IMG/VR virus record: IMGVR_UViG_3300044655_001017
DNA from: a virus
Taxonomy: Duplodnaviria > Caudoviricetes
Reading direction: 5' to 3' (one strand)
Length of the DNA: 64,000 bases
The position numbers and the translations under genes were made by a program. Under the pieces are notes generated by a model. The model was given only the letters and a program-made list of their open reading frames with translations. It had not been told where the DNA came from and ran no database searches. This document shows, piece by piece, positions 3,850 to 62,581 of this stretch (positions are counted from its first letter, which is position 1; every line of letters starts with the position of its first letter).

Positions 3850-4269
3850 ATGACAAGAATTAATTCAAATGTAGACCCTAAACAATTAATGGATCAACAC
3901 CTTATGGCAGAATACAGAGAATTACCTATGGTGCTTGCATCGCTTCGTCGGTCGTTGAAGACACAATCAGAAAGAGAAGTTCTTAAAAAAATTCCTCCTA
4001 AATTTACACTTAATACCGGGCACGTAACATTTTTCTATAACAAGCTAACATTCCTTAGGAATAGATATGATCGGTTAGTTAGCGAATTACACAACAGAGG
4101 ATACAACTTAGATCAAGGTCGTGTACTTGATCTAAATGGTATACCTTCTACGTTTTTTAATGATTGGTCTGCAACACCTGCAGATGATGCTGTATTAGAA
4201 CAGCGTATTAAGGAAAAGATAGCTATGAAGCCATCTTGGTACAAATATTATGGTAAATCTGTGTTATGA
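3850..4269 (+). CDS. denV: Pyrimidine-dimer DNA glycosylase (T4 endonuclease V)
   Basis: MTRIN...[12 protein letters not shown] and [13 protein letters not shown] match the T4 DenV signature; AAGGAG SD. Confidence 0.95.
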
Positions 4270-5468
4270 CAAGTACACAGATCAAACACGATAACAAGTG
4301 CATTAACTAAATCGTCAATCATCCCATCAGTATGCAATGGAGTAGGTGCAAATCGCAAACGCTCTGTTCCTACTGGGACAGTTGGTGAATTTATTGCTTG
4401 TGAATAGATATTAAAATCATTTAATAGCATGTCACTCATTGTTTTGCATCTTCTAGCATCTCCTACTAGAACTGGAACAATGTGTGTGTCACTTTGCATA
4501 ACAGGTAACCCTGCTTCTATTAATCTTGCTTTTAATTTGTTTGCTTGTTGCTGATGTTTTAATCTTAACTCATTATGATCTTTAAGATACTTAACTGCTG
4601 CTAATGCTCCGGCACATGTTACCGGACTCATTGATGTTGTGAATATAAAACCGGCTGCTACTGATCTAATTGCATCAATTACATCAGAACTTGCTGCGAT
4701 ATATCCGCCCTGGACTCCAAACGCCTTACCGAGAGTACCGTTGACTATGTCGACTCTCCCTTGTAACTGTAGTTCTTCTAGCTTACCCGCTCCACATGTG
4801 CCATAAAGTCCAACGGCGTGTACTTCGTCTATATAGGTTATAGCGTGGTATTTATCTGCTAAATCACAAATATCCGCTATTAGACTAATATCACCATCCA
4901 TCGAATATACACTTTCAAAAACAATACAAGGTGTGTGATTATTATCTATTGCTCTAATTAAACATTCTTCTAAATCAATTAAATCATTATGTTTAAATAT
5001 TTGTTTTGGCGCTCTGCTGTGCGACATGCCAACAATTAAACTATTGTGATTTTTACTGTCGCTTATAAATTCAATGTCTTTTACAATTTTAGATAATGCA
5101 ATTAAACTCCATTCATTAGCAACATATGCAGAGCTGAATAACAACGCTCTATCTTTCTTATGTAATAATGCTAGTTCATATTCTAATGCAACATGATAAT
5201 GGCTAGTTCCAGAAATGTTTCTAGTACCACCACTGCCTGCACCAGTCATGTCTAATGCAGTTCGCATTGCATCAAGTACAACTTTATGCTGCCCCATACC
5301 TAGGTAATCGTTACTACACCAGTTTATAATATTTTTAATATTATACGGACCGTACCAAATTGCAGTTGGGAACTTACCGTTTTCTCGTAATATATCGTTA
5401 AACACACGGTAGTTACCAGAGTCTTTTAAGTTTTGAATAGTTTGTTTGAAAGGTTCATTGTTTATCAT
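4248..5468 (-). CDS. hemA: 5-aminolevulinate synthase (Shemin/C4 pathway)
   Basis: [58 protein letters not shown] (PLP lysine), [16 protein letters not shown]. Confidence 0.93.
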
Positions 5469-19207: not shown

Positions 19208-19906
19208 ATGAATTATCAAAAAATATACAATGATATAATAATTAGGGGACAAACTAGATTGTTAGAGGGATACAAAGAAAAACATCATATTATTCCAAGA
19301 TGTATGGGAGGAACTGATGATACAAATAACTTAGTATTCCTAACTCCAGAAGAGCATTATTTGTGCCATCTGTTGTTAGTTAAAATATATCCTAAAAATA
19401 TTAGATTAGTTAAGGCTGCTATATTTATGGCATCGTCAAACAGCAATCATCAACGCAATAATAAAGCATACGGGTGGTTAAAACGACAATTTTCCGATTA
19501 TATGCGCGGCCCTAACAATCCACAAAAACTAAACCCTATTAAAGGAGAACAGCATTATGCATTTGGAAAACCTCTTTCTCCTAACCATTTTACAAAAGAA
19601 GGTAAAAAAGTGTTATCAGATAAAATGATAGGAGAACATAATCCGTGTGCCGGAATTAAACCGTGGAAACATCCAAGAACAACCGATGTTACACTAGCAC
19701 TATGGAAAAGAGCTGATGCAATTTATGATACATGGGTAGCACATAATATGCCATCTTACTGTAAACTATTTGGATTAGTCATGGACAAGAAGTATGATTG
19801 GCAAAATAAGAATCACGGTAAGGAAATAGGTCCATTTATGAATATGGTAAAATATTTTAGGAATGGTTGGATACCTACTCAAGATATAGAATGGAATAAA
19901 TTATGA
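19208..19906 (+). mobile_element. Free-standing HNH homing endonuclease
   Basis: EKHHIIPRCMGG-DDTNNLVFLTPEEHYLCHLLL HNH motif; lies between nrdA and sod. Confidence 0.85.
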
Positions 19907-20454
19907 GCTATAGTTTCATTAAACAATTTATTACTGAAGGTAAGCCAGCATCTTTAAAAATAGATGCGTTACCGTACAGTATGGACGATTTAAGCCCTGC
20001 TATCTCAAAAGCAACATTAGAATATCATTACGAACATCTTGCTAAAACATACGCAAAGCGTTATAATGCAGGAGAAGGTGATCCTGTGTTTAACGAAGCA
20101 GGCGTATTTTTACACAACATCTTATTCCAACAGTATCAAGAGTCAACTGGCAACCTAAACAAGCCAGTTGGCAACGTGTTAGAGTTAATTGAAACACATT
20201 ATAAAACTTTTGATAAGTTTAAAGAAGAGTTTTTAAAAGTAGCAATGGGCATACAAGGCAGTGGTTGGGTTTATCTTGCTAAAAATGGTAAGATTAAAAC
20301 AATAACTAATCATGCTATTAAAAAAGACATTGTACTGTTAGTTGACTGGTGGGAACATGCATGGGCGTTAGACTATCAATCAGATAAGAAAAAGTATTTA
20401 GAAAACCAATGGAAAATAATAAACTGGAACTACATAAATGAAACAGTTAGTTAA
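19903..20454 (+). CDS. sod: Fe/Mn superoxide dismutase
   Basis: LPY..DDLSPAISKATLEYHY, FLHNILF, QGSGWVYL, DWWEHAW metal-ligand motifs. Confidence 0.92.
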   Translation: MSYSFIKQFITEGKPASLKIDALPYSMDDLSPAISKATLEYHYEHLAKTYAKRYNAGEGDPVFNEAGVFLHNILFQQYQESTGNLNKPVGNVLELIETHYKTFDKFKEEFLKVAMGIQGSGWVYLAKNGKIKTITNHAIKKDIVLLVDWWEHAWALDYQSDKKKYLENQWKIINWNYINETVS

Positions 20455-21398: not shown

Positions 21399-22493
21399 AT
21401 GAGTGAAGAACAATATAATTTAGGTGAACACACTAACTACTTGTCTAGAAAGTTATTTCTAGACGGTACCGTTACAATTCAACGATTTGAAGAAGTACGG
21501 TATCCGCGTATTCAAAAATATGAAGCTACTGCTAGAGGTTTCTTTTGGACACCAGAAGAAATATCATTAAGTAAAGATGCTAACGATTTTAAAGATGCGA
21601 GTGATGCAGTTAAGCATATATTCACTAGTAACTTACTAAGACAAACTGCATTAGATAGTTTGCAAGGCCGCGGACCTACACAAGTGTTTACACCTGTAGT
21701 AAGTGTACCTGAAGCAGAACTGCTAATGCTTAACTGGGGCTTCTATGAGTCAAATATTCATAGTCGCAGTTATAGCCATATTATTCGTAATATCTATAAC
21801 ATTCCAAAAGAGATATTTAACACTATACATGATACTAAAGAAATTGTTGACATGGCAAGTAGTGTTGGCAAATACTACAATAGATTGCATAAACTTAACT
21901 GTCAAAAAGAACTTGGTATTGAAGTTCTTGAAAGAGACCACATTAAAGCTATTTGGCTTGCACTACACGCAAGTTATGCATTAGAAGCATTCCGATTTAT
22001 GGTATCATTTGCTACTAGTTTAGCAATGGTCGAAAACAGGCTGTTTATTGGTAACGGTAATATTATTGCATTAATTTTACAAGACGAGCTGTTACACAAA
22101 GAGTGGACTGCTTATATGATCAATTTGGTAATAAAAGATGATCCGCGTTTTACCGAAATTAAAGCAGAGTGCGAAGAAATAGTGTATAATATGTACTTAG
22201 ATGTGATTAGAGAAGAAAAAGAATGGGCAGATTACTTATTCTTAAAAGGTCCAGTAATTGGACTTAATGCTAACATCTTAAAAGAATTTGTTGACTATAC
22301 TGCAGTACACGCTTTAAAAGAAGTTGGTATTAAGTATCGCGAAACAGCTCCTAAATCAACACCTATACCGTGGTTTAACAAACATTCCGACCCGAGTAAA
22401 AAGCAAACTGCTTTACAAGAATCTGAAAGTGTTAACTACGTTATTGGCGTTATGAGTGACGAATTAGATTATGACGAATTACCAACATTGTAA
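21399..22493 (+). CDS. nrdB: Ribonucleotide reductase class Ia beta subunit
   Basis: FFWTPEEI, LDSLQGR, ESNIHSRSYSHI, LEAFRF, DELLH, IREEKEW, QESESVNY. Confidence 0.97.
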   Translation: MSEEQYNLGEHTNYLSRKLFLDGTVTIQRFEEVRYPRIQKYEATARGFFWTPEEISLSKDANDFKDASDAVKHIFTSNLLRQTALDSLQGRGPTQVFTPVVSVPEAELLMLNWGFYESNIHSRSYSHIIRNIYNIPKEIFNTIHDTKEIVDMASSVGKYYNRLHKLNCQKELGIEVLERDHIKAIWLALHASYALEAFRFMVSFATSLAMVENRLFIGNGNIIALILQDELLHKEWTAYMINLVIKDDPRFTEIKAECEEIVYNMYLDVIREEKEWADYLFLKGPVIGLNANILKEFVDYTAVHALKEVGIKYRETAPKSTPIPWFNKHSDPSKKQTALQESESVNYVIGVMSDELDYDELPTL

Positions 22494-22656
22494 CGACATT
22501 TGTGCATGCATGGGACCGCAGGGCGATGATCCTGTATGTCCATGCGAAATGCTTAGAGAAGGAAAACAACCATCATATGAATTATGGACTAAGACAGACG
22601 TAGAGGCTATGAACAATGCGGTCGGACAGATATTTAAAAAAATCTCGCAAGGGTAA
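22471..22656 (+). CDS. Small Cys-rich hypothetical protein
   Basis: CACMGPQGDDPVCPC motif; overlaps the nrdB end; start uncertain. Confidence 0.5.
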   Translation: MTNYQHCNDICACMGPQGDDPVCPCEMLREGKQPSYELWTKTDVEAMNNAVGQIFKKISQG

Positions 22657-22777
22657 CGGCGCTGCAGGAAATGCAAATCAAGCAATAGCACTAAATTCAC
22701 CAGCGAGAGTAAAAGCTATGATGGCCAATATAGCAAAAATTGATTGGTCAAACCCGTACAAGGATTTTATTAAATGA
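22616..22777 (+). CDS. Possible 53-aa hypothetical protein (MRSDRYLKKSRKG...)
   Basis: Read manually; fills the gap before glutaredoxin and ends in an ATGA overlap. Confidence 0.4.
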   Translation: MRSDRYLKKSRKGNGAAGNANQAIALNSPARVKAMMANIAKIDWSNPYKDFIK

Positions 22778-23016
22778 CAGCAATTATATGGTCAAAGGAC
22801 CAGTGCAGTTACTGTGTGCAAGCTAAGAGCTTGTTACAAATGAAAAACATCAACTTTGAAGAACGAAACATTTCAAATGGTGGATGGACTAAAGAACAAC
22901 TATTAGAAGAAGTACCAACAGCAAGAACACTACCACAGATTCAAATTGATGGCAATTACATTGGTGGTTTTTCAGAATTACAACAATACTTAAAGGCAAA
23001 TTATGATTATAGATAA
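22774..23016 (+). CDS. grx: Glutaredoxin
   Basis: CSYC active site, TLPQI, IGGFSEL; adjacent to nrdB. Confidence 0.93.
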   Translation: MTAIIWSKDQCSYCVQAKSLLQMKNINFEERNISNGGWTKEQLLEEVPTARTLPQIQIDGNYIGGFSELQQYLKANYDYR

Positions 23017-23293
23017 AGGCGTATCACCAGGCGAAGTAGTAACTCTTAAATTAACTTCAGGTGAAGAACTTATTGCATCGCTAGTTGAAGAAACAGAAAA
23101 ATACATTAAAGTTTCAAAACCACGTGTATTAACAGCAGCACAAGGCGGTATTGGAATGGCTCCTTACTTGTTTACAGTTGACCCAGATAAAACAATTAAA
23201 ATTGCAGCATCAACTGTAGTAGTATTAGAAGCAACCGAGAGAGAATCAGCTAAATCATATACAGAAGCGACTTCTAGTCTTATTGTATTATAA
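23003..23293 (+). CDS. Conserved phage hypothetical protein (small beta fold)
   Basis: GEVVTLKLTSGEELIA pattern. Confidence 0.7.
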   Translation: MIIDKGVSPGEVVTLKLTSGEELIASLVEETEKYIKVSKPRVLTAAQGGIGMAPYLFTVDPDKTIKIAASTVVVLEATERESAKSYTEATSSLIVL

Positions 23294-23300
23294 ATACAGT

Positions 23301-23807
23301 ATGAGCATATCTCCTAATAATTTTGAGTTTGTATACGACGGGTTTGATTTTTCAGTGTTTGCTACGTGTGGAGAGAACGAAGTTGTACTTTCTGCAGAGA
23401 CTTCATTACCAAATATTGGTGTTAGTTTATCATGGTCAGGTCGCACGTTTACTGTATCAGGAACGTTTTATAAAGTATTTGCAGAATCTACATGGTCATA
23501 CATACCTGTTGGAAGTACTAGTACTACTTCAGTAACTACAAATAACATTGGAACTATAACGGAAGTACCGTCAACTATCTCAGCATTAATTAGTGGAACA
23601 CATGATCCTAGAATTGAAATACCAATTACATATACAGTTAGTACAAAGAAAACTATAACAATTGATGTTCCTGGTACAGAAGAAAGTCCTGGATACTCAT
23701 ATGATGAATACGAGTACCATACACACGTAATTGATCATAAAGTATGTAATCATTGGGATGTATTTAAAAACCAATTAACAGATGTTGTATCAAGAGGAAC
23801 ATTATAA
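23301..23807 (+). CDS. Late hypothetical protein (baseplate-region neighbour)
   Basis: TATAAATA at 23289-23296 directly upstream of ATG 23301. Confidence 0.65.
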   Translation: MSISPNNFEFVYDGFDFSVFATCGENEVVLSAETSLPNIGVSLSWSGRTFTVSGTFYKVFAESTWSYIPVGSTSTTSVTTNNIGTITEVPSTISALISGTHDPRIEIPITYTVSTKKTITIDVPGTEESPGYSYDEYEYHTHVIDHKVCNHWDVFKNQLTDVVSRGTL

Positions 23808-24097
23808 TGCCACCAGTATCAAGATTAGGTGATAAATGTACAGGACACGCTGGCTGGCCTGCAAGACCAAACGACGAAGCCAGTCCTGATGTATTTGCAA
23901 ATAATATCAAAGTGCATCGGCAAGGTGATCATTGGATAATACACTGTGATCCATCTCCGTCATGTCATGATTCAACATTAGCTGCAGGTAGCGGAACTGT
24001 ATTTGTAAATAATAAACAGTGTAGTAGGATAGGAGATCCAGTAGCATGCGGATCTAAAATTGCACAAGGCAGCGGAAACGTATTTGCAGGTGGATAA
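23807..24097 (+). CDS. PAAR-like / T4 gp5.4-type tail spike tip protein
   Basis: PVSRLGDKCTGH, VHRQGDHW, CHDS..AAGSGTVFVN, RIGDPVACGSKIAQGSGNVFAGG. Confidence 0.9.
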   Translation: MPPVSRLGDKCTGHAGWPARPNDEASPDVFANNIKVHRQGDHWIIHCDPSPSCHDSTLAAGSGTVFVNNKQCSRIGDPVACGSKIAQGSGNVFAGG

Positions 24098-24112
24098 AAG
24101 GAGGTAATAGAT

Positions 24113-24187
24113 ATGAAATGGGAAACACCAACATATGTTGATTTACGTTTTGGCTTTGAAGTCACTATGTATATTTACAATCGTTAA
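24113..24187 (+). CDS. pqqA: Pyrroloquinoline quinone (PQQ) precursor peptide PqqA, 24 aa MKWETPTYVDLRFGFEVTMYIYNR
   Basis: Read manually; W-x-x-P...DLRFGFEVTMY pattern with the E-x-x-x-Y core; AAGGAGGT SD at 24098-24105; terminator directly after. Confidence 0.93.
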   Translation: MKWETPTYVDLRFGFEVTMYIYNR

Positions 24188-24213
24188 GAAAAGGGCTTTT
24201 TAGCCCTTTTCTT
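24188..24213. terminator. Bidirectional intrinsic terminator
   Basis: gaaaagggct-tttt-agcccttttctt between convergent genes. Confidence 0.85.
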
Positions 24214-24224
24214 ATGAGTACGTA

Positions 24225-25097
24225 TTAGTACATTGATTCCATTTGAATGCCACGTTTACTTAACTCAGCACCTAATGCTTGTAATTGGTTATCACCGGCT
24301 CTAGCAATAGCAGTTCTAACTTCATGTGCAATTTTTGGATCAAGTTGAGAAAGTACATGTTGTATAATACCTTGTACCTGCAAGTTTTGTTGACCTCTGT
24401 TATCTTCCGGTTTAGGTTCAGGTTTTTTAACTAAATCACTATTTCTATGATAGTCTTTTTTCTGTGTAGAAATATATGCATCACCTTGTTTTTTTAATTT
24501 AATGCCGGTTGACATATCTTTACTATAATTAGTTGCGTTGGATTTTTTAGTTGCCCATTGTCTAATGTAACGCGCTAATGAAGATCCTGCATTTTGCAAA
24601 TCCATATCTTCAATAAGTTTACCAAGTTGAATCATAACACTTGGTAATTTTTCATCAATTGCATCCATTAGTTTACCGTATGTTTGCTTTTCTTTTTGAC
24701 GTACTGCAGCGTCCATGTTTACTGGTAAATTTGCTAACTCGTGCAAGCCGTCAATACGTTTAAATTGAGGTACTTGCGATAATGCAATAAGTGGTGACTT
24801 TAAACCAACTACTGCCTTTTCTGATCCTCGGCCTAAGCTACGCGTTCCAACTGACATATAGTTTTCAGTAAACCATTTTGATCTAACTGATGCTAGTCTA
24901 AGAGTAGCAGCTGCAATATGTTTTTCTACAAGTGCTACTTCCATTTCATTTGATGGATCTTCAACATTTAAATCATATTCAGATAAAATGTCAGGTAACG
25001 TAATGCTATATAACGTAGATAAGCTTCTTGCTTTTCTAATCAATTCGTCTGTAAGATCTGAAGCACTTCTAGCTTCCATTAATTCTTGTATTCTCAT
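24225..25097 (-). CDS. Late hypothetical protein (MRIQELMEA)
   Basis: 290-aa ORF, AAGGA SD, TAAATA on minus strand near 25126-25131. Confidence 0.75.
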   Translation of the reverse strand: MRIQELMEARSASDLTDELIRKARSLSTLYSITLPDILSEYDLNVEDPSNEMEVALVEKHIAAATLRLASVRSKWFTENYMSVGTRSLGRGSEKAVVGLKSPLIALSQVPQFKRIDGLHELANLPVNMDAAVRQKEKQTYGKLMDAIDEKLPSVMIQLGKLIEDMDLQNAGSSLARYIRQWATKKSNATNYSKDMSTGIKLKKQGDAYISTQKKDYHRNSDLVKKPEPKPEDNRGQQNLQVQGIIQHVLSQLDPKIAHEVRTAIARAGDNQLQALGAELSKRGIQMESMY

Positions 25098-25142
25098 GGA
25101 TAATCCTTTTTGTAATAATATAGTGTATTTAGCAGTTTTTAG

Positions 25143-25170
25143 TTGACTTTTAACAATATTACTGTATAAT
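25143..25170 (+). promoter_or_regulatory. sigma70-like promoter
   Basis: TTGACT-N16-TATAAT. Confidence 0.55.
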
Positions 25171-25246
25171 GTGTTAATAGTATACGTTATCTATGCAAAA
25201 ATCCATATTTTAAATGGGATTTTGTAGTTCTGTACTATATATTATA

Positions 25247-25423
25247 TGTTTCGAGAGAAACTGAGATAGTTGGATTGAGAGATGTAATCAATCCTGCGAG
25301 TCTTGGCCAAATTAGAAACCCGCGAAATTCGGGAAGCCAGGCTTGCCAAAGGTGCAACATGCAGTTTATGTTGTGGCTGATGGAGAAGACGTCACGAACA
25401 AAATGGGTTCAAAGAACCTCGTG
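25247..25423 (+). ncRNA. Candidate structured RNA / 5' leader upstream of rlpA
   Basis: Stems gtttc-GAGA-gaaac, ggattga/tcaatcc, gtctt/aagac enclosing tggc/gcca, cccg/cggg and gcaacat/atgttgt, plus cacga/tcgtg enclosing ggttc/gaacc; higher GC than the flanks and no ORF. Confidence 0.55.
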
Positions 25424-25485
25424 CAGTTTACTCCCTTAATGTAATGTGCAGTTATTTTAATGCACACCAAGTGAAAGGAGAAAAA

Positions 25486-25992
25486 ATGAAAAATTCACTA
25501 ATAACAGGGCTTCTTGCCCTTTCAATAATTACCACCGTAGCTCCAGTAAATGCAGCTACTAAACATTCAACTGACAATCATTCAATACAACACAGTATAC
25601 ATAAAAAAACTAAACACCTGCATTATAAGCATAGACTTAGATCAGCACATACATCTAACGAAATGCAAGGTATAGCTAGTTGGTATGGTTACGAGTCCGG
25701 CCCGAGATATCGTCGCAGACCTAAAACTGCAAACGGAGAATATTTTAGTCCAAAAGAACTAACTGCAGCACATAAGTTTTTACCATTTGGAACTATAGTT
25801 GAAGTAACTAATTTAGCTAATAACCAAACAGTATTAGTTAGAATAAATGATAGAGGTCCCTTTTCTAAAGGTAGAATTATTGATTTATCAAAGGCTGCTG
25901 CAAAAGCAATTGGAATATCTGGAGTTCAAAAAGTATCTTTAGCTATCAAGTCCTTCTCTGATAAATACAAGGCAAAACTAATTACCACATAG
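25486..25992 (+). CDS. rlpA: RlpA-like lytic transglycosylase (DPBB) with signal peptide
   Basis: [57 protein letters not shown] before ATG 25486. Confidence 0.9.
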
Positions 25993-26000
25993 AAGGTCAC

Positions 26001-49014: not shown

Positions 49015-50538
49015 TTGAAATTATCAAAACTAGCTATTGCTGTAACAGTTGCACTAACATCAAGTGTAACTACATCGGCATTTGCGCTAGATTTGTATGT
49101 TAACACAAAAACGAAACAAATTTTTGCAGAACCCGGTAAAGGTCGTCAGAAAATAGGTGCGTTTGAAAAAATTGAAGAATCTGCACATACAACAGTCAAC
49201 AATGAACATACAATCCAAGCGGTTGAAAGTGAAAAATCTGAAATCAAAAAAATTGAACAAGATTTAGAGCTTAAAAGCAATGAAATCAAAGCTCTAGAAG
49301 AACACATCGTTGCTAATAAAGAGGCTGCAGCTAAAAACGATGAAAAATGGTTTAACAAAATTAGTATGCGTGGTTATACTCAATTACGTTATAACCAGCC
49401 ACTTTCAGGCGATAGAGAAGCTAGAGGCACGAAAGATCCTGAAATGAGATCACCTGGTGATAGTGGTATTAAGGATAATGGTGGGTTTACATTCCGTCGA
49501 GTTCGTCTTGTTTTCTCAGGTGATATTAATGATTACGTATCACTTTATATCCAACCAGATTTTGCAAGTAATGTCAGCGATTCACAACAACATTTTGTGC
49601 AACTTCGTGACGCTTATGCCGATTTGGCCTTTGATAAAAAACATGAATACCGTATTCGTGCGGGTCAATCAAAAGTGCCTTTTGGTTGGGAAAACTTACA
49701 GTCATCGCAAAATCGTATAGCGTTAGATCGTAACGATGCGTTAAACAGTGCTGTACCAAGTGAACGTGATTTAGGTTTAATCGGATATTGGGCGCCATCT
49801 GAAGTCCAAAAATTATGGAAAGATTTAGCGAAGAAAAATTTAAAAACATCGGGTGACTACGGTATCTTAGGTTTCGGTGTTTACAATGGTCAAAGTATCA
49901 ATAAAGCCGAAACAAATGATGACCTTTATTTAGTGGCACACAGTACCTATCCAATTGAATTGAACTTCTTAGGCTCATTCTTCAAAGGTCAAGTATTAGA
50001 AGTTGGTGCAGATGCTATCAGTGGTAAATTTAATACACCTACTGCTTCAATTACACCATTTGCAGGTGTTGATGGATTTAACGGCAAAACATCATTTACA
50101 CCAACATCTTTAGGTGGTAAAAATGGTATTCGTGAAGAACGAGTTGGCGTTCATGCTGTATTATTCCCACAACCTTTTGGTTTACAAACTGAATGGAACT
50201 GGGGTGAAGGTGGAACTTTAGATACAACACAGAAAAAAATCACCAGCCAAGGTTTGAGCGGTGGTTATGTTCAAGCTATGTATAAAATAGATAAAGTTTT
50301 ACGCTCTGATGATTCAATCATTCCTTACGCAAAATGGCAAACTTATGATGGCGCCTATAAGGGAGCGAACAATGCGCCACGCGTTTCAGTTGAAGAAATT
50401 GAGGCTGGTGTAGAATGGCAAATGATGAAAGCTTTAGAATTAACCGTGGCTTATTCAACTATGGATAGAACAAACGTTACTAACTTAGGACAAGCTTCGG
50501 GCGATATGATTCGTACACAGTTGCAGTGGAACTACTAA
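49015..50538 (+). CDS. Outer-membrane porin, phosphate-selective OprO/OprP-like (TTG start)
   Basis: Signal peptide, periplasmic coiled coil, RGYTQLRY, FRRVRL, LRDAYADL, RAGQSKVPFGWENLQSS, ERDLG, C-terminal QLQWNY beta signal. Confidence 0.8.
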   Translation: MKLSKLAIAVTVALTSSVTTSAFALDLYVNTKTKQIFAEPGKGRQKIGAFEKIEESAHTTVNNEHTIQAVESEKSEIKKIEQDLELKSNEIKALEEHIVANKEAAAKNDEKWFNKISMRGYTQLRYNQPLSGDREARGTKDPEMRSPGDSGIKDNGGFTFRRVRLVFSGDINDYVSLYIQPDFASNVSDSQQHFVQLRDAYADLAFDKKHEYRIRAGQSKVPFGWENLQSSQNRIALDRNDALNSAVPSERDLGLIGYWAPSEVQKLWKDLAKKNLKTSGDYGILGFGVYNGQSINKAETNDDLYLVAHSTYPIELNFLGSFFKGQVLEVGADAISGKFNTPTASITPFAGVDGFNGKTSFTPTSLGGKNGIREERVGVHAVLFPQPFGLQTEWNWGEGGTLDTTQKKITSQGLSGGYVQAMYKIDKVLRSDDSIIPYAKWQTYDGAYKGANNAPRVSVEEIEAGVEWQMMKALELTVAYSTMDRTNVTNLGQASGDMIRTQLQWNY

Positions 50539-50650: not shown

Positions 50651-52618
50651 ATGAGCAAAATTATCGGAATCGACTTAGGTACAACAAATTCATGCGTAGC
50701 AATCTTAGAAAACGGAATTGCTAAAGTAATTGAAAACGCAGAAGGTACACGCACAACCCCCTCAATCATCGCATACACTAACGACGAAATCCTAGTTGGT
50801 GCAGCAGCAAAACGTCAATCAGTAACAAATCCAAAAAACACATTATATGCTGTTAAGCGTCTTATTGGTCGTAAATTTGATGAGTCAGCTGTACAGAAAG
50901 ATATTGACTTAATGCCATATAGCATTATTAAAGCTGAAAACGGTGATGCATGGGTAGAAGCAAATGGTGAGAAACTAGCTCCTCCACAAGTGTCTGCAGA
51001 AATCTTACGTAAGATGAAAAAAACTGCAGAGGACTATTTAGGTACAGAAGTAACTCAAGCAGTTATTACCGTACCTGCATACTTTAACGATTCACAACGT
51101 CAAGCAACTAAAGATGCAGGACGTATTGCTGGATTAGAAGTATTGCGTATTATTAATGAACCAACTGCTGCAGCATTAAGCTACGGTGTTGATAAGTCTG
51201 ACAAGAAAGACCGCAAAGTTGCTGTATTTGACTTAGGTGGTGGTACTTTTGATATTAGTATTATTGAGATCGCTAATGTTGACGGTGATAAACAAATTGA
51301 AGTATTATCTACAAACGGTGATACGTTCTTAGGTGGTGAAGATTTTGATCAACGTTTAATGGATCATTTGATTGATGAATTTAAGAAAGAGTCTGGCGTA
51401 GATCTTAAAACTGATACAATGGCGTTGCAACGTTTAAAAGAAGCTGCTGAAAAAGCTAAAATTGAATTGTCAAGTACTGCACAAACAAATGTTAACTTAC
51501 CATATGTTACTGCAGATGCTACAGGTCCAAAACACTTAAATGTAACAGTAACTCGCGCTAAGTTTGAATCATTAGTTGACGACTTAGTACAACGTTCAAT
51601 TGAACCATGTAAAATTGCAATTGCAGATGCTAAAGTACAATTGTCAGATATTGACGAAATTATTTTAGTAGGTGGTCAAACACGTATGCCTAAAGTACAA
51701 GAAGCAGTTGAAGCATTCTTTAGAAAAGCACCACGTAAAGACGTTAATCCAGATGAATCTGTTGCTGCAGGGGCTGCTATTCAAGGTGCAGTGTTAGCAG
51801 GTGACAAAACTGACGTATTGTTACTTGACGTTACTCCATTAAGTTTAGGTATTGAAACAATGGGCGGAGTGTTTACTAAGTTAATTACTAAAAATACAAC
51901 TATTCCAACTAAAGCAAGCCAAACATTTTCAACAGCAGAAGATAATCAACCTGCAGTTACTATTAAAGTAGGACAAGGTGAACGCGACTTGTATCGTTAC
52001 AATAAACAACTTGGCGAGTTTAACTTAGAAGGTATTGACTCAGCGCCGCGAGGTCAACCACAGATTGAAGTAACATTTGATATCGATGCCAATGGTATTA
52101 TGCATGTAAGTGCTAAAGATAAAAATACAGGCAAAGAGAACAAAATTACTATTAAATCTGATTCGGGATTAACTGACGATGAGATTCAACGTATGGTGCG
52201 TGAAGCTGAAGAAAACGCAGAATCAGATGCTAAGGCTAAAGAGTTAATTGAAGCGCGTAACAGTGCAGAAGCACAATCACATTCTTTGAAGAAAGACTAC
52301 GATGAAGTTAAAGACGAGTTAACTGAAGAAGAACGTACTGCGTTTGATGATGCATTAATTGCACTCGAAACTGCACGCGACGGTGAAGAAGTTGAAGCAA
52401 TTACTGAAGCAACTACTAAACTTTTTGAGGCAGCAAGTCCTGTTTTTACTAAAAAACAAGAAGTTGAACAAGCCAAAGCTGCTGCAGATGCAAAAGGCGA
52501 AGCAGACGTTACTGCAGAATTTACTGAAGTAACCTCTGAAGAAACTGTTGAAGACACTGTTGAAGACACTGTTGAAGAAACTGTTGAAGAAGCCACAGTA
52601 GCAGAACCAAAAGCATAA
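50651..52618 (+). CDS. dnaK: Hsp70 chaperone DnaK
   Basis: [45 protein letters not shown]. Confidence 0.98.
52541..52588 (+). repeat. 12-bp tandem repeat x4 in the dnaK 3' end (ETVE/DTVE)
   Basis: ga(a/c)actgttgaa x4. Confidence 0.9.
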
Positions 52619-53503: not shown

Positions 53504-54027
53504 GTTTAAAAGAATTAACAGCAGAGGCACACAGACTAGCAGAAACCCAACCGTTTGTTAAAAAAATCTTTTCTGGTAATCTTACTAATGAAGAATATGC
53601 AATCTACTTGTATAATCAGTATACTGCATATGAAATTTTAGAAAGTCATGCACTAGTAATAGGGTTATTAAATGACTTACCAGGTATACAACGTGCAGCA
53701 GCGTTACTTGGTGATTTTAAAGAATTATGGCCAGATGATCAAGAAGTGCCACCACTTGCAACTGCTACAGTTTTATATAAAGAACATATTAACAATATTT
53801 CTAACAATCCAGATAAACTACTAGCACACATGTATGTTAGACACATGGGAGATCTATACGGTGGTCAAATGATTGCAAAAAGAATTCCAGGATCCGGATC
53901 CTGTTATAAATTTGATAATGCTGATGCGCTTAAAACTGCCATTCGTGCTAAATTGGACGATTCATTGGCAGACGAGGCATTAGTCTGTTTTAAATTTGCC
54001 ACTCAGTTATTTGAAGAGTTAGCATGA
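53500..54027 (+). CDS. hemO: Heme oxygenase (HO1/HemO-type)
   Basis: LKELTAEAHRLAE (proximal His), LLAHMYVRHMGDLYGGQMI, EALVCF. Confidence 0.92.
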   Translation: MSLKELTAEAHRLAETQPFVKKIFSGNLTNEEYAIYLYNQYTAYEILESHALVIGLLNDLPGIQRAAALLGDFKELWPDDQEVPPLATATVLYKEHINNISNNPDKLLAHMYVRHMGDLYGGQMIAKRIPGSGSCYKFDNADALKTAIRAKLDDSLADEALVCFKFATQLFEELA

Positions 54028-54701
54028 CAGTACTTTGGAATCAATTAATTGATCTTCAACTCATGCTTGAAGATCATTTTAACGAAACTGGAACAATTGT
54101 TGTTGAATCAAATCACGATCGATTTTCTCATAAAGGTTGGATACATAGAGTATGGGAAAGCAAGTTATATCGCAGAGCGCATATAGATATTATTGACGAG
54201 CGTGATACTCGTGGATTATGGATGTTACACTGCTGTATATTTCCACATACTAATAATCCTGCACCAATATTTGGATTTGATATAGTAGCAGGTCGTAATA
54301 AAATTACAGGTTGTTTCCATGATTATAGCCCTGCAGGCGATATTAATCATCCAATGATTAAATGGTTTGCGAACAACGTTGATGAGTTACAATGGAATAA
54401 ATTACGAACATTACCTGATTGGGCTGTTCGTATTTTTTCCCCGTCTATGATAGCTGCAAGCAACGTTCAATCTAGCGAAGAAATAGCACAAATTATTAAT
54501 ACAGTAACATGCACTAGTAAACACTACTTATCATGCGTTGCAAACACAAATAACACTGTTAAAAGCACTGTAGAAGAACAAAACTACTACGCACAAAATC
54601 AAAAGTTAAATCCTCACACTCCTAAAGTTATGGCTGCATTAGGATTAAACGAAGAAGAAGTTAACATCTTTATTCATCAATGCTTATTTCCTGAAATTTA
54701 A
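54024..54701 (+). CDS. Ferredoxin-dependent bilin reductase (PcyA/PcyX-like)
   Basis: YRRAHI, LWMLHCCIFP (His), PIFGFDIVAG (Asp), FHDYSP, LPDWAVRIFS, QNYYAQNQKLNPHT; coupled to heme oxygenase. Confidence 0.88.
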   Translation: MTVLWNQLIDLQLMLEDHFNETGTIVVESNHDRFSHKGWIHRVWESKLYRRAHIDIIDERDTRGLWMLHCCIFPHTNNPAPIFGFDIVAGRNKITGCFHDYSPAGDINHPMIKWFANNVDELQWNKLRTLPDWAVRIFSPSMIAASNVQSSEEIAQIINTVTCTSKHYLSCVANTNNTVKSTVEEQNYYAQNQKLNPHTPKVMAALGLNEEEVNIFIHQCLFPEI

Positions 54702-54708
54702 ATGTAAA

Positions 54709-54738
54709 ATAGTGTATTTATACAGATAAATACACTAT
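54709..54738. promoter_or_regulatory. 12-bp palindrome made of two back-to-back TAAATA motifs upstream of rimK
   Basis: atagtgtattta-tacaga-taaatacactat. Confidence 0.6.
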
Positions 54739-55618
54739 GAAACATTCAGTTATAATTCTCACAAAACAAACTACTATTGACTATGAAACTTCTAAACTGT
54801 TGGCTAATTTTATAGCTAACGGCATTGAAGTGTCAGTCCGTCAATTTAACAACTTTGATATCGTTATAAATCAACCAATTAGATACGATGGGGAAGATTT
54901 CCCCATGCCAGATTTAGTATTAGTACGATTGGGTGCTGGTATTACGTCTGTCGAATTAGCTGTAATTAGATATTTTGAATTACACAGTATTCCATGCGTT
55001 AATTCTAGCAATAGCATTAATATCGTACAAAACAAATTCCACACTAGTCAAATACTGTCACATGCTAACATAGCTGTTCCTACTACAATGCTAGTACACT
55101 TTCCAATTACTAATAACTTAATCGCAACACAGATAGGATTCCCTTGCGTAATTAAAGTGTTAGTTGGTAGTTTTGGTGAAGGTGTGTACTTATGCCATTC
55201 TGAAGACGAATATAAAAAACTAATTGAATTTCTTAAAAACTTAGATAATGATAAAAAATTATTAGTGCAAGAATACATTAATGATCGTCCTGGTGAAGAT
55301 TTACGAGTATTTGTAGTTGGTGATAAAGTGTTAGGTGCAATGAAGCGCACTGCACCGCCTGACGATTTTCGAGCAAATATTACAATAGGTGGCACTGGCG
55401 AGTCATTCCCTGTATCTAAAGAAATAGAAGACATATCACTAGCTACTGCAAAAGCATTAGGATTAGAAATTGCCGGTATTGATCTGTTATTTGATAAAAG
55501 AGGTTTTAGAGTTTGCGAAGCCAATTCAAATCCAGGATTTAACGGTTTTGACCATTATTGCAATACTGACATAGCGAGCGACATAGTTAATTACATTGTT
55601 AAAAGATTATCAGAGTAA
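54737..55618 (+). CDS. rimK: RimK-family ATP-grasp ligase
   Basis: NKFHT, PCVIKVLVGSFGEGV, LVQEYI, DLRVFVVG, FRANITIGG, GIDLL, CEANSNPGF. Confidence 0.9.
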   Translation: MKHSVIILTKQTTIDYETSKLLANFIANGIEVSVRQFNNFDIVINQPIRYDGEDFPMPDLVLVRLGAGITSVELAVIRYFELHSIPCVNSSNSINIVQNKFHTSQILSHANIAVPTTMLVHFPITNNLIATQIGFPCVIKVLVGSFGEGVYLCHSEDEYKKLIEFLKNLDNDKKLLVQEYINDRPGEDLRVFVVGDKVLGAMKRTAPPDDFRANITIGGTGESFPVSKEIEDISLATAKALGLEIAGIDLLFDKRGFRVCEANSNPGFNGFDHYCNTDIASDIVNYIVKRLSE

Positions 55619-58752: not shown

Positions 58753-59607
58753 ATGAAAAAATTACTATTATTAGCAATTATTCTACTACTACAAGGATGT
58801 GCAGCAAGTAGTTCAATTGAAAAACTTATAACAGGTGAACAGTTTGACGATCCAATCGTTGACAATACACCGTATTTAAAAAAAGAAGAAAATTATTTAG
58901 CTCCGCCGCAAGGTGGACCTATTCCAATTGCAGTATACGGTTTTACGGATAAAACTGGACAACGCAAATCAATACCAAACATTGCTAGTTTAAGTTCTGC
59001 AATTACTCAAGGTGCTGAAAACTATTTAATCAAGTCATTAAAAGAAGTCGGTGATAGTCGTTGGTTTGTAGTACTAGAACGCGTTGGCTTAGACAACCTA
59101 GTTAAAGAACGTCAAATGATTCGCCAAACACGCGAACAGTTCCAAGGCAAAGATGCTACTTCATTACCGGCTATGACATTTGCTGGAATTATTGCAGAAG
59201 GTGCAGTTGTTGGTTATGATTCAAATACAATCACAGGCGGAGCAGGTGTAAGGATATTTGGCATAGGTGGCGAAACACAATATCAAAGCGATACTGTTAC
59301 AGTAAGTTTAAGAATTGTATCAGTAACATCTGGTGAAATTCTAACATCAGTTGTAGTAACTAAAACTGTACTAAGTTATATGGATAAAGTCGGTGTATTA
59401 AGAATGTTCTCTTCAGATACTAAAGCATTAGAAACAGAAGTGGGCGGAAGTATAAATGAAAGTATTAACAAAGCGACTAACAAAGCTATTCAAGCCGCTG
59501 TGGTCGAAACTATTAAAGAAGGTGCTAAGAAAGGTCACTGGGCTTTTAAAGAAGCGCCACAGGAGCTAAAAAATGAAACAACTAATACTACTACTACTAA
59601 TAAGTAG
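58753..59607 (+). CDS. csgG: Curli secretion channel CsgG-like lipoprotein
   Basis: Lipobox LQGC; IAVYGFTDKTGQRK, WFVVLERVGLDNLVKERQMIR, GAVVGYDSN..TGGAG, DTVTVSLRIVSVTSGEIL. Confidence 0.92.
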   Translation: MKKLLLLAIILLLQGCAASSSIEKLITGEQFDDPIVDNTPYLKKEENYLAPPQGGPIPIAVYGFTDKTGQRKSIPNIASLSSAITQGAENYLIKSLKEVGDSRWFVVLERVGLDNLVKERQMIRQTREQFQGKDATSLPAMTFAGIIAEGAVVGYDSNTITGGAGVRIFGIGGETQYQSDTVTVSLRIVSVTSGEILTSVVVTKTVLSYMDKVGVLRMFSSDTKALETEVGGSINESINKATNKAIQAAVVETIKEGAKKGHWAFKEAPQELKNETTNTTTTNK

Positions 59608-60340
59608 TCCAGTGTTTGCAGCAAGTACAGGAGTAAACAATGTATACATTGAACAAGTTGGAAATGCAAATACAATCGTTATTGATCAAATTGGCGGAGG
59701 AAATAATGTCGGTGGCACAGCACTTAATGTTCCTTTACTATACAGTTCTAGTAACACTATTATATCGTTTGTACCAGCTACTGCAAGCTCATCAAATTAT
59801 GCGACTATTACGGGTAATTCTAACCAAGTAACCTTGTCGCATACTGGAGATACTAACTGGGCACAATATAATATTAGCGGAGCAAATAATATATATTCTA
59901 GTATCATTAAAGGTAATCAAAATCAAACGTTACTTAACATTGGACTTGGTACTCCAGTAAATGCTAATGTTGTTACTGAAACAATTACTGGTGATTTAAA
60001 CTATGTTATACAAAGTTTAACTAAAGGTAGCATACATAGTACAATTGATATTAATGGCAGTAACAATGAAGTTACAACACGATTAAATAGCACTAACGGT
60101 GTAGTAGATACAACAGTAAGTGGTGGGTTTAACAGTTTCATTAACGAACAAGACGATGGAGGTATTGGGCATCATCTAGTACAAGATTTTACTGGGAGTT
60201 ATAACTCTGTTGTAACACAGCAGCAAGGTACTAACGATTCTATGATAGATATTAGTACAATTGGAGATCATAATACAATTACTGTAAGGTCAACTAATTC
60301 AAGCAGTATTGTAAATTCAAATACAGCCGTTTCGAGGTAA
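59573..60340 (+). CDS. Curlin-like (CsgA/CsgB-type) secreted repeat protein
   Basis: Signal peptide; repeated N-x-x-x-x-x-Q-x-G-x-x-N units (NNVYIEQVGNAN, NSVVTQQQGTND). Confidence 0.75.
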   Translation: MKQLILLLLISSPVFAASTGVNNVYIEQVGNANTIVIDQIGGGNNVGGTALNVPLLYSSSNTIISFVPATASSSNYATITGNSNQVTLSHTGDTNWAQYNISGANNIYSSIIKGNQNQTLLNIGLGTPVNANVVTETITGDLNYVIQSLTKGSIHSTIDINGSNNEVTTRLNSTNGVVDTTVSGGFNSFINEQDDGGIGHHLVQDFTGSYNSVVTQQQGTNDSMIDISTIGDHNTITVRSTNSSSIVNSNTAVSR

Positions 60341-60341
60341 T

Positions 60342-61427
60342 ATGTGGTTCTTAGTTTTTTTATTATTAGTTGTTAATAATGCTTATGCAGGAATTGGTGC
60401 AGTTTCAGACGCTAAAGGCACTGCATGCAGCATTGAACGTAACAAAGAAAAACTTGCAGGTGATAAAGGCGCATCTATAGAAAGTATGGATGCGTACATT
60501 ACCGGCGGGTGTGTTAGTAACATTCTATTTAAAGATGAAACAAAAGTTAAAATTACAGAGAATAGTAGATTAGTAATAGATGACTTTGTATACGATCCAA
60601 AACAATCAGATGCAGGTAAACTTGCATTAAAAGTTGGATTAGGTACTGTTAGATATGCAAGTGGGCAAATAGCAAAAGCTAATCCACAGCAAGTAGGTAT
60701 TCAAACTCCCACTGCTACAATTGCAGTACGTGGTACTGACTTTACTATGACAGTAGATGAAACTGGCCAATCTCTTATTGTACTACTTCCAAGTTGCAAA
60801 GATGAGAAAGATGTTAAGCAATATGAACTACAAGAGAATATTTGTAAAGTAGGTAAAATTGTAGTTACAAATGATGCAGGGGAAGTTACTTTAGATCAAG
60901 CGTTTCATGCAACTTATGTTAGTAGTAGAACTGCAATGCCAACTGCTCCGGAAGTTATTAGTTTGGTAGAATCTAAAATCAATAATAACTTAATCATTTC
61001 TGCGCCAAAAGAAATTGTTAACGCAATTAAACAAGCAGCTAGAACAAAGAAAGATGAAGAACAAGAAGATTTAGAAAAAGAAGCAACTAGACGATTAGCA
61101 AATCAAGTAGCTAAAACTCAAGAAACTATTGCTGCTAGAATAGAACAGATTGCAGAAACTATACAATCTATTGCACCTTGCGACCCGACATCGCATGTAT
61201 GTGTAATGTGGGAACAACCTAATGCAGACGGTACACAAAAAGGTAAAGGTACTGCATATCGTATAACCCCAGATGAACACTATGCTGAAATTAAAACACA
61301 AGGGTATACTTCTAATACTGCTATATCTATTATTCAAAATGATACTACTGCATCTACAATGATAGGCGACAGCAGTGGCGGTAATACAATAAGTATTACA
61401 CAAACTACCGGAGTGTTAAGACGATGA
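60342..61427 (+). CDS. Secreted FecR-domain protein
   Basis: Signal peptide; KVKITENSRLVID, LKVGLGTVRYASG, IQTPTATIAVRGTDF. Confidence 0.85.
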   Translation: MWFLVFLLLVVNNAYAGIGAVSDAKGTACSIERNKEKLAGDKGASIESMDAYITGGCVSNILFKDETKVKITENSRLVIDDFVYDPKQSDAGKLALKVGLGTVRYASGQIAKANPQQVGIQTPTATIAVRGTDFTMTVDETGQSLIVLLPSCKDEKDVKQYELQENICKVGKIVVTNDAGEVTLDQAFHATYVSSRTAMPTAPEVISLVESKINNNLIISAPKEIVNAIKQAARTKKDEEQEDLEKEATRRLANQVAKTQETIAARIEQIAETIQSIAPCDPTSHVCVMWEQPNADGTQKGKGTAYRITPDEHYAEIKTQGYTSNTAISIIQNDTTASTMIGDSSGGNTISITQTTGVLRR

Positions 61428-62581
61428 GAATTTTATTTTTCATATTGTTGTTATGGTATTCAAATGTAGATGCAGTTCCTAACTATGTACCACTTAGACC
61501 ATTAATGTTAGGATATATTCCATCAAGTATGAATAGTCCAGGTGGTGAGTTCTTTAGTAATGCGTTTGACGGTAATCCCGGAACTAAGTATCTTAACTTT
61601 GATAAACTTAGTGCAGGTGTTATGCTTAAACTGTCACAAGGTAAAGTTATTAGTCAAGTACAATTTACTACAGCAAATGATTCTCCAGAACGAGATCCTG
61701 CTAGTTTTAGTTTATTTGGAAGTAATGATACATCAGGAGGTTGGACGTTAATAACTTCTCAACTTATTGCATTACCTAATAATAGACTTGCAGTTAGTCC
61801 AGTATACCCTATTAACAATACAGAAGCATACGTGTATTATAATATAACGTTTCCAATTGTTAAAGACGCAGGTGCTGCTAACTCTATGCAAATTGCAGAA
61901 ATAACATTCTTGTACGATCAAAATGATCCTACTACTAGCATTGACTTAGGAAGTACGTTACCATGGACTACGTTTCCAAGTGTATATTGCTGCGGTGGCA
62001 GTGGATCTTCATTTAATGCCGCTCCTGCTAATACTGCAAAAGTAACGGCTTTTACATCTAGATCAACTACTGACAATCAAGTATATATAGATCAGTTAGG
62101 AAACAATAACAAGATTACAATTGATCAAAAAGGTACTAACAACAATTATGTAAATTACAGCAGTAATGGCTCGTCTAACACTACTACTATTAATCAAACT
62201 GCAGCCAATAACTTACAAGTAAACTTTATTGACTTAACAGTAAATGGCAATTCTAATTTGCTTAGTATAGATCAAGATACATATACTGCCGGGTTTAGTA
62301 AAGGTGCTTTTATAAATATAACTGATAATAACAACAGTTTAATTTTACAACAAAAGGGTAGTGGAAATTATTATGCTAATATTGAATTATCTGGTGGTAA
62401 TAAACATGTTGATATATTACAACAAGGTGCAGCAAATCATATGACTGATATTACCTTATCAGGACAACCAGTAGACTTGAGTCTACAACAGAGTGGTGCT
62501 ACTCAACAGTATTACTCAATAAACTTTAATTGTGCTACAGTAGGAGGATGCGCACCAATTCAAGTACAACAAGGGCAATAA
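61424..62581 (+). CDS. Secreted discoidin (F5/8 type C)-like plus curlin-repeat hybrid protein
   Basis: Signal peptide; NAFDGNPGTKY...TANDSPERDPASFSLFGSND...WTLI; C-terminal NQVYIDQLGNNN-type curlin repeats. Confidence 0.75.
   Translation: MRILFFILLLWYSNVDAVPNYVPLRPLMLGYIPSSMNSPGGEFFSNAFDGNPGTKYLNFDKLSAGVMLKLSQGKVISQVQFTTANDSPERDPASFSLFGSNDTSGGWTLITSQLIALPNNRLAVSPVYPINNTEAYVYYNITFPIVKDAGAANSMQIAEITFLYDQNDPTTSIDLGSTLPWTTFPSVYCCGGSGSSFNAAPANTAKVTAFTSRSTTDNQVYIDQLGNNNKITIDQKGTNNNYVNYSSNGSSNTTTINQTAANNLQVNFIDLTVNGNSNLLSIDQDTYTAGFSKGAFINITDNNNSLILQQKGSGNYYANIELSGGNKHVDILQQGAANHMTDITLSGQPVDLSLQQSGATQQYYSINFNCATVGGCAPIQVQQGQ

Follow-up and report, generated by a model that had tools for sequence, protein, structure and literature searches.

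Virus-encoded PqqA, the peptide precursor of the cofactor PQQ, was described in the Lake Baikal Methylophilaceae virus population VP_266 (Coutinho et al. 2020, Microbiome 8:163; PMC7678222), and PqqA was listed again in 2026 among viral phosphorus-cycle genes (PMC13188868). Viral pqqA as such has thus been known since 2020, and the novelty implied by an earlier note on the DNA studied here was overstated. The pmoC-phages LR_4/5/6 of Lake Rotsee have genomes of 314–366 kb, a G+C content of 36–38% and a predicted Methylobacter host (Chen et al. 2020, Nat Microbiol; PMC7674155), and the paper describing them makes no mention of PQQ or pqqA. Here we analyse a 64,000-nucleotide stretch of phage DNA (hereafter the window) in which a 24-codon open reading frame (ORF), directly behind a tail-spike tip gene, encodes a peptide of the PqqA family.

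In bacteria, PqqA is bound by PqqD, and its glutamate is cross-linked to its tyrosine by the radical-SAM enzyme PqqE. After trimming, PqqB hydroxylates the cross-linked peptide and PqqC oxidises it, and each PQQ uses up one peptide; the periplasmic methanol dehydrogenases MxaF and XoxF depend on PQQ as their cofactor. A phage-supplied, fast-turnover component of host energy conversion, for which the host provides the rest, is familiar from cyanophage psbA, which encodes the D1 protein.

The pqqA gene and its neighbourhood

The features on which the analysis rests are listed by position in the window, the last being a distant gene that bears on the identity of the host.

23289–23296 (+), TATAAATA motif, proposed T4-type late promoter, by sequence match
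23301–23807 (+), 168-aa ORF, function unassigned, variable or absent in relatives
23807–24097 (+), PAAR (gp5.4-like) tail-spike tip gene, PF05488 43.5 bits, adjoining pqqA upstream
24098–24105 (+), Shine-Dalgarno sequence AAGGAGGT, directly 3' of the PAAR stop codon (24095–24097)
24113–24187 (+), pqqA, the 24-codon PQQ precursor peptide gene, an ORF from ATG to TAA with TIGR02107 and PF08042 matches, translated as MKWETPTYVDLRFGFEVTMYIYNR and then a stop
about 24186–24213 (no strand), hairpin with a G+C core flanked by an A-tract and a T-tract, found by folding and starting inside the pqqA stop codon
24225–25097 (−), convergent 290-aa ORF, function unassigned, hypervariable among relatives
49015–50538 (+), phosphate-selective porin O/P family gene with homologues in Methylomonadaceae

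The match of the 24-aa peptide to the PqqA family is far beyond chance. It scored 44.8 bits (E 7e-12) against the NCBIfam model TIGR02107, for which the equivalog cut-off is 20 bits, and 42.8 bits against Pfam PF08042 (cut-off 21.1 bits), so the assignment to PqqA made in the earlier note was upheld by both family models. The Glu-x3-Tyr pair that undergoes cross-linking is present as E16-V-T-M-Y20, and leader residues W3, P6 and D10-L11-R12 match the PqqA of Methylococcales, with differences only at the variable positions 7–9. By every sequence criterion, the ORF is a genuine PqqA.

Signals for expression surround the gene closely. The GGAGG-to-ATG spacing is 8 nt, and this near-consensus Shine-Dalgarno sequence at optimal spacing is predicted to be a strong ribosome-binding site. 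The downstream hairpin folds with a dG of −20.6 kcal/mol (z = −6.05; none of 200 shuffles folded equally well) and shares only 2 nt with the ORF. As it sits between the convergent pqqA and 290-aa ORF it could terminate both, and is a probable bidirectional intrinsic terminator; a simple terminator scan did not list it because the A/T tracts extend the stem. ORF, Shine-Dalgarno sequence and hairpin were thus all as described in the earlier note, on the basis of sequence, translation and fold, and its placement of the gene directly after a PAAR/gp5.4-type gene agrees with the Pfam match and the position of the PAAR stop codon. A tblastn search with the PAAR protein recovered 445 phage records annotated as PAAR. 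The preceding 168-aa ORF had no Pfam or PHROG match, and a search for related loci with it as the query recovered no relatives.

The co-directional string 5' of PAAR comprises nrdA, an HNH endonuclease, an Fe/Mn superoxide dismutase, nrdB, glutaredoxin, a 96-aa phage ORF (phrog_527) and the 168-aa ORF. The endonuclease and dismutase genes lie between nrdA and nrdB (19208–20454, +), and glutaredoxin follows nrdB. Just after nrdB, at 22483–22625, 141 nt are replaced by 14–15 other letters in RNA-library contigs of related phages, and three related phages (L018, L021 and L040) carry around 900 extra bases there, marking the site as an indel hot spot.

With a gap of only 15 nt to the PAAR stop codon, pqqA would share a transcript with the co-directional genes up to PAAR and be the last gene on it. 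The earlier note had this unit begin at a late promoter at 23289, and here only part of the claim stood: the TATAAATA motif is present, but a promoter role is unsupported. The motif is rarer than chance in the window (6 copies against 12.8 ± 3.7 expected, with at least 6 in 100/100 shuffles). The copy at 23289 shares nucleotides with the 96-aa ORF's stop codon and ends just 4 nt short of the ATG at 23301, and a transcript starting at the usual distance would have no space for a leader. Conservation of the site is partial, reading CATAAATA or GTATAAATA in three sequence types of relatives (ATAAATA is kept in 3/4), and the motif is absent from the fourth type (L018/L040), in which the start of PAAR and the stop codon before it overlap. 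A late promoter at 23289 is therefore only a possibility, and pqqA could just as well end a longer transcript that spans the nrd-sod-grx genes.

Phage background, origin of pqqA and host

The window encodes a T4 gp9/10 N-terminal domain, RnlA RNA ligase, ribonucleotide reductase (RNR), PAAR and Mtd_N-type fibre proteins, and its virion structural proteins are 41–44% identical to their counterparts in Synechococcus myophages (cyanomyophages). The G+C content ranges from 31.5 to 39% (around 36% overall). CheckV estimated an 88.5-kb IMG/VR relative to be 25% complete, implying a genome of >300 kb. Lake-water metagenome runs (n = 21, all from different studies) contained 82–98% of the stretch's sampled words, and a search of positions 22000–26000 for near-identical DNA among GenBank phages found no match. 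Judged by this gene content and distribution, the source is a large T4/cyanophage-like lytic myophage of lake water, and pqqA has the setting of an auxiliary gene, that is, a metabolic gene of apparent host derivation flanked by phage genes in a bona fide phage.

Several other genes in the window have a host-like character. Three stretches (50651–52618, 54024–55618 and 58753–62581, all +) encode a full-length DnaK/Hsp70, a ferredoxin-dependent bilin reductase, a RimK-family glutamate ligase and a curli-type set (CsgG, a FecR-domain protein and a curlin-repeat protein). The second-best NCBIfam match of the RimK-family ligase is the tetrahydromethanopterin:glutamate ligase MptN, below cut-off. 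A non-specific DNA/RNA endonuclease is also encoded in the window. A 5-aminolevulinate synthase gene was found at 4248–5468 (−), scoring 563.9 bits against TIGR01821 (cut-off 338.6). This enzyme is a one-step route to the haem precursor and is, to our knowledge, unusual in a phage of Gammaproteobacteria; it may be linked to cytochrome or bilin synthesis.

The origin of the peptide was traced with the degenerate pattern W-E-T-P-x3-DLRFGFEVTMY, scanned over one genome per prokaryotic species, which gave at least 120 matches. All 120 matches listed were from Methylococcales, including Methylobacter, Methylomonas, Methylovulum, Methylomicrobium, Crenothrix and Cycloclasticus, among others. Among these listed matches the bacterial peptides were identical to the phage peptide at 21–23 of 24 residues and the genes at 56–68 of 75 nucleotides. 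Codon differences summed over the 120 listed comparisons amounted to 949 synonymous versus 254 non-synonymous, the latter only at leader positions. In the bacteria, pqqB was found within the 8-kb stretch beside pqqA in 104 of the 120 listed loci, and a hairpin also follows pqqA there, before pqqB. PqqA peptides from phages of Methylophilales were only 54–63% identical to that of the window, and of the two bacterial sources considered in the earlier note, Methylococcales and Methylophilales, it is the Methylococcales type that the phage peptide resembles. As the phage gene shares at most 91% of its nucleotides with any sampled host gene and the differences are mostly synonymous, the acquisition of pqqA does not appear to be fresh.

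The porin gene points in the same taxonomic direction. Of 61 genomes from Methylobacter's family, at least 14 encode a full-length homologue with 63–74% identity, and 250 genomes sampled evenly across the class yielded a single full-length hit, at 44% identity, a "1 of 250" contrast that rests on an unpublished genome record (G049). By homology, this is a host-derived outer-membrane porin. Two host-derived genes, pqqA and the porin, thus indicate Methylomonadaceae, and the phage likely infects a type I methanotroph of this family.

Conservation, recurrence and alternative explanations

Close relatives of the phage were available as eight IMG/VR contigs, with backbone genes 92–98% identical in DNA. 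The orphan pqqA was intact in 8/8 and base-for-base identical in seven; the eighth (L021) showed two synonymous changes and one replacement, Y22H. A strain variant from a lake metagenome, A24133G, was also synonymous. The Shine-Dalgarno sequence was kept in 8/8 relatives, even where the upstream gene differs, and the hairpin stem was kept while its loop changes, such that Shine-Dalgarno sequence, ORF and hairpin stem persist as a unit in all eight. Complete nucleotide identity is only mildly informative here, since the backbone is itself 92–98% identical.

The genes around this unit are far more changeable. Amino acid identity among relatives was 36–71% for PAAR and 35–91% for the 290-aa ORF. 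The 168-aa ORF was 34% identical in three relatives (L006/L028/L031) and absent in two (L018/L040), and in L021 PAAR and pqqA lie 390 nt further apart. The patch formed by PAAR and the 168-aa and 290-aa ORFs (23301–25097; seen in L006, L018, L021 and L040) looks like a site of host-range diversification in which pqqA is an invariant island.

Comparison with other lineages gave a pN/pS for pqqA of 0.12–0.21 (pS around 0.7), values that underestimate the ratio, since 8 of the 18 compared codons were fixed by the search pattern and three more were limited to N-T-N codons. Both E16 and Y20 were kept in all phage copies examined, which, with the intact ORF of every close relative, bears out the conservation on which the earlier note's reading depended.

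A search of IMG/VR with a general PqqA-core pattern recovered 37 loci. All 37 were intact ORFs of 23–25 aa with canonical ends, and together they form around 10 sequence groups. Phage genes were found near pqqA in 6/6 groups checked, the flanks including large terminase and portal genes (L026, L004, L007 and L014), T4-type DNA polymerase (L027 and L038) and RNR (L036); in L004, pqqA lies directly before the large terminase gene. A seventh group with a tail-fibre gene (L016) was set aside as probably prophage-flanking bacterial DNA, with 52% G+C and a PqqA of enterobacterial type.

The gene also occurs in ten GenBank phage records, namely Melnitz (four genomes), Venkman, MEP301, MEP401/402, P19250A and an uncultured spring-water phage, and in 10/10 the strand carrying pqqA has no annotated CDS. 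Ten representative phage peptides, including those of Melnitz and P19250A, scored 34–47 bits against TIGR02107. In Melnitz-1 (MZ577095.1, 3967–4072), the "hypothetical protein" Melnitz1EXVC043M_151 is annotated on the opposite strand over pqqA (TIGR02107, 34 bits) and is probably a mis-call hiding it; a tRNA-Leu gene lies just after. Two hits named "Acinetobacter phage MD-2021a" were rejected as phage evidence, being bacterial contigs with ppk and a full pqq operon. One of them, CAKLQF020000010.1 (144 kb), carries ppk, a 5'-nucleotidase gene and the full pqqABCDE operon and looks like a bacterial chromosome contig.

Transcription was examined in assembled Logan contigs of three metatranscriptome runs. 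In the freshwater run X22, contigs aligning to 24112–24187 had 7–9 mismatches in 66 nt, started exactly at the ORF and had non-phage flanks, and are therefore bacterial. Several variants of this bacterial pqqA mRNA reached word depths of 600–2600, among the deepest contigs of the run, and the four Methylococcales genomes searched hold only 1–2 pqqA copies each. Demand for pqqA mRNA is very high in such lake communities. The contigs of the three runs contained no phage pqqA transcript. In X22, contigs matching the phage perfectly have a depth of around 2 and none lies over pqqA; these data speak neither for expression of the phage gene nor for its silence, and they lend no support to the timing given in the earlier note, during virion assembly.

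A small piece of recently acquired host DNA that is intact by chance and brings the phage no benefit is one way to account for the gene, though we think it unlikely. The gene is tiny, it lies in the recombination-prone, hypervariable tail-tip region, the three RNA runs give no phage pqqA expression, and the relatives are young enough that 75 nt could have stayed unchanged by chance. Against such neutrality, the ribosome-binding site, ORF and hairpin have stayed together in 8/8 relatives despite replacement of the upstream gene (L021) or loss of the 168-aa ORF (L018/L040), and intact orphan pqqA recurs in around 10 phage groups, six of them confirmed by nearby phage genes, without a broken copy among the 37. 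Taken together, these comparisons indicate that pqqA is kept by selection across related and unrelated phages.

The gene is an orphan as far as the phage DNA extends, that is, within the 64-kb window and the fragments of its relatives. A tblastn search with PqqB, PqqC, PqqD and PqqE of Acinetobacter and of three Methylobacter operons (E ≤ 0.01) found no pqqB–E in the window, in accordance with the earlier note, and queries from both genera found none in any of the phage loci fetched. A Pfam scan of the 40 window ORFs of at least 300 aa revealed no PQQ-dependent dehydrogenase. Orphan pqqA copies are known in bacteria, so missing pqqB–E does not exclude membership of the PqqA family.

The peptide might instead feed a different, phage-encoded modification enzyme, or act as a signal or regulator, with no PQQ being made. 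The window is a minor part of a genome of >300 kb and many of its ORFs have no assigned function, which gives this idea some room. Near pqqA, however, the window and the other phage loci showed no gene for a radical-SAM or RiPP-recognition protein, and the peptide is constrained exactly like bacterial PqqA, making another partner very unlikely.

The earlier note had also raised a decoy for PqqD/PqqE. Such a peptide might occupy these host proteins or lower PQQ synthesis, for example to redirect radical-SAM/SAM resources or to slow the host. This is conceivable only since the peptide would bind PqqD, and the analysis lent it no support. Leader and core are of host type, with both cross-linked residues present, and loss of E16 or Y20 would be expected in a decoy, whereas the phage copies examined keep both; moreover, less PQQ would cut the energy supply on which the phage depends. 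We regard inhibition as extremely improbable. Lastly, it is scarcely credible that the stretch goes untranslated and acts at the level of DNA or RNA, perhaps helping to terminate or stabilise the PAAR message at its 3' end: its stop codon does lie inside the hairpin and its nucleotide sequence is unusually invariant among relatives, but differences across lineages are mostly synonymous with the peptide kept, the near-consensus Shine-Dalgarno sequence is conserved at optimal spacing, and the hairpin reaches only 2 nt into the ORF.

Proposed role and comparison with known systems

We consider it likely that pqqA is a host-derived auxiliary gene that supplies the stoichiometrically consumed PQQ precursor to the PqqB–E enzymes of the host. 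That the phage provides only the precursor and host enzymes do the rest, as the earlier note suggested, is the most economical reading and is backed by recurrence of the gene in many lineages. The phage peptide would be bound by host PqqD and cross-linked between Glu16 and Tyr20 by host PqqE, after which a host protease, PqqB and PqqC would process it to PQQ. If the phage curtails host transcription, the short pqqA message would be lost fast and the PqqB–E proteins would persist. Since one PqqA is needed per PQQ, and bacteria need very high levels of pqqA mRNA, host shut-off would cut the supply of PqqA first. The phage copy could then keep PQQ available for MxaF/XoxF and sustain the flow of energy from methane or methanol through a long infection.

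More tentatively, at somewhat short of an even chance, the phage may be of the pmoC type infecting Methylobacter-like methanotrophs, with PmoC supporting the methane monooxygenase and PqqA the methanol dehydrogenase, the first two steps of methane oxidation, and its own 5-aminolevulinate synthase possibly aiding haem supply for cytochrome acceptors; the PQQ arm of such phages would have been missed as gene callers skip 24-codon ORFs. AmoC/PmoC (PF04896) had no match in six fragments of relatives, nor in control genomes, which makes the negative result uninformative.

Much of the methane that would otherwise escape from lakes is removed by freshwater methanotrophs, and this flux could be altered by phages that reprogramme their metabolism. 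The known pmoC-phage story concerns the first pathway enzyme only, and pqqA in such a phage would add the second step, methanol oxidation. The gene would also represent an unusual type of auxiliary gene, in which a consumed substrate is encoded and not an enzyme, and one that standard annotation, with a minimum ORF of around 30 codons, systematically hides. What is fresh here is the Methylococcales-type peptide, the link to a methanotroph host, the conservation of the gene in a hypervariable tail-tip region and its background in a large cyanophage-like phage, possibly of the pmoC type.

The Lake Baikal population VP_266 is similar in that a stand-alone pqqA is carried by an uncultured freshwater phage of a C1-oxidising host and was interpreted as an auxiliary gene boosting PQQ for methanol dehydrogenase (PMC7678222). 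Its predicted host, however, is a methanol-using betaproteobacterium of the Methylophilaceae, and its genome also carries methanol dehydrogenase, whereas the window combines a Methylococcales-type peptide with a large T4/cyanophage-like myovirus and no dehydrogenase among its Pfam-scanned ORFs of at least 300 aa. The cultured Methylophilales phages (Melnitz, Venkman, MEP301/401/402 and P19250A) share an orphan pqqA of 23–24 codons (TIGR02107 34–39 bits) that was missed or mis-annotated in GenBank, but belong to other lineages with other hosts and encode more distant peptides of the "EMRFGFEVTMY" type.

The chromosomal PqqA of Methylomonadaceae (Methylobacter, Methylomonas, Methylovulum and Crenothrix, in pqqABCDE operons) has the same length, is 88–96% identical and is directly followed by a hairpin. 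In 104 of the 120 listed bacterial loci pqqB comes next, whereas the phage copy is an orphan after PAAR with its hairpin facing a convergent phage gene. With the pmoC-phages, the phage shares lake water, a relation to cyanophages, a G+C content of around 36%, an estimated genome of >300 kb and a probable methanotroph host, as well as the same logic of carrying one critical piece of the host's methane-oxidation machinery. To cyanophage psbA the likeness is one of analogy only: D1 is a structural subunit damaged in catalysis, whereas PqqA is a ribosomal peptide consumed as the substrate of a cofactor.
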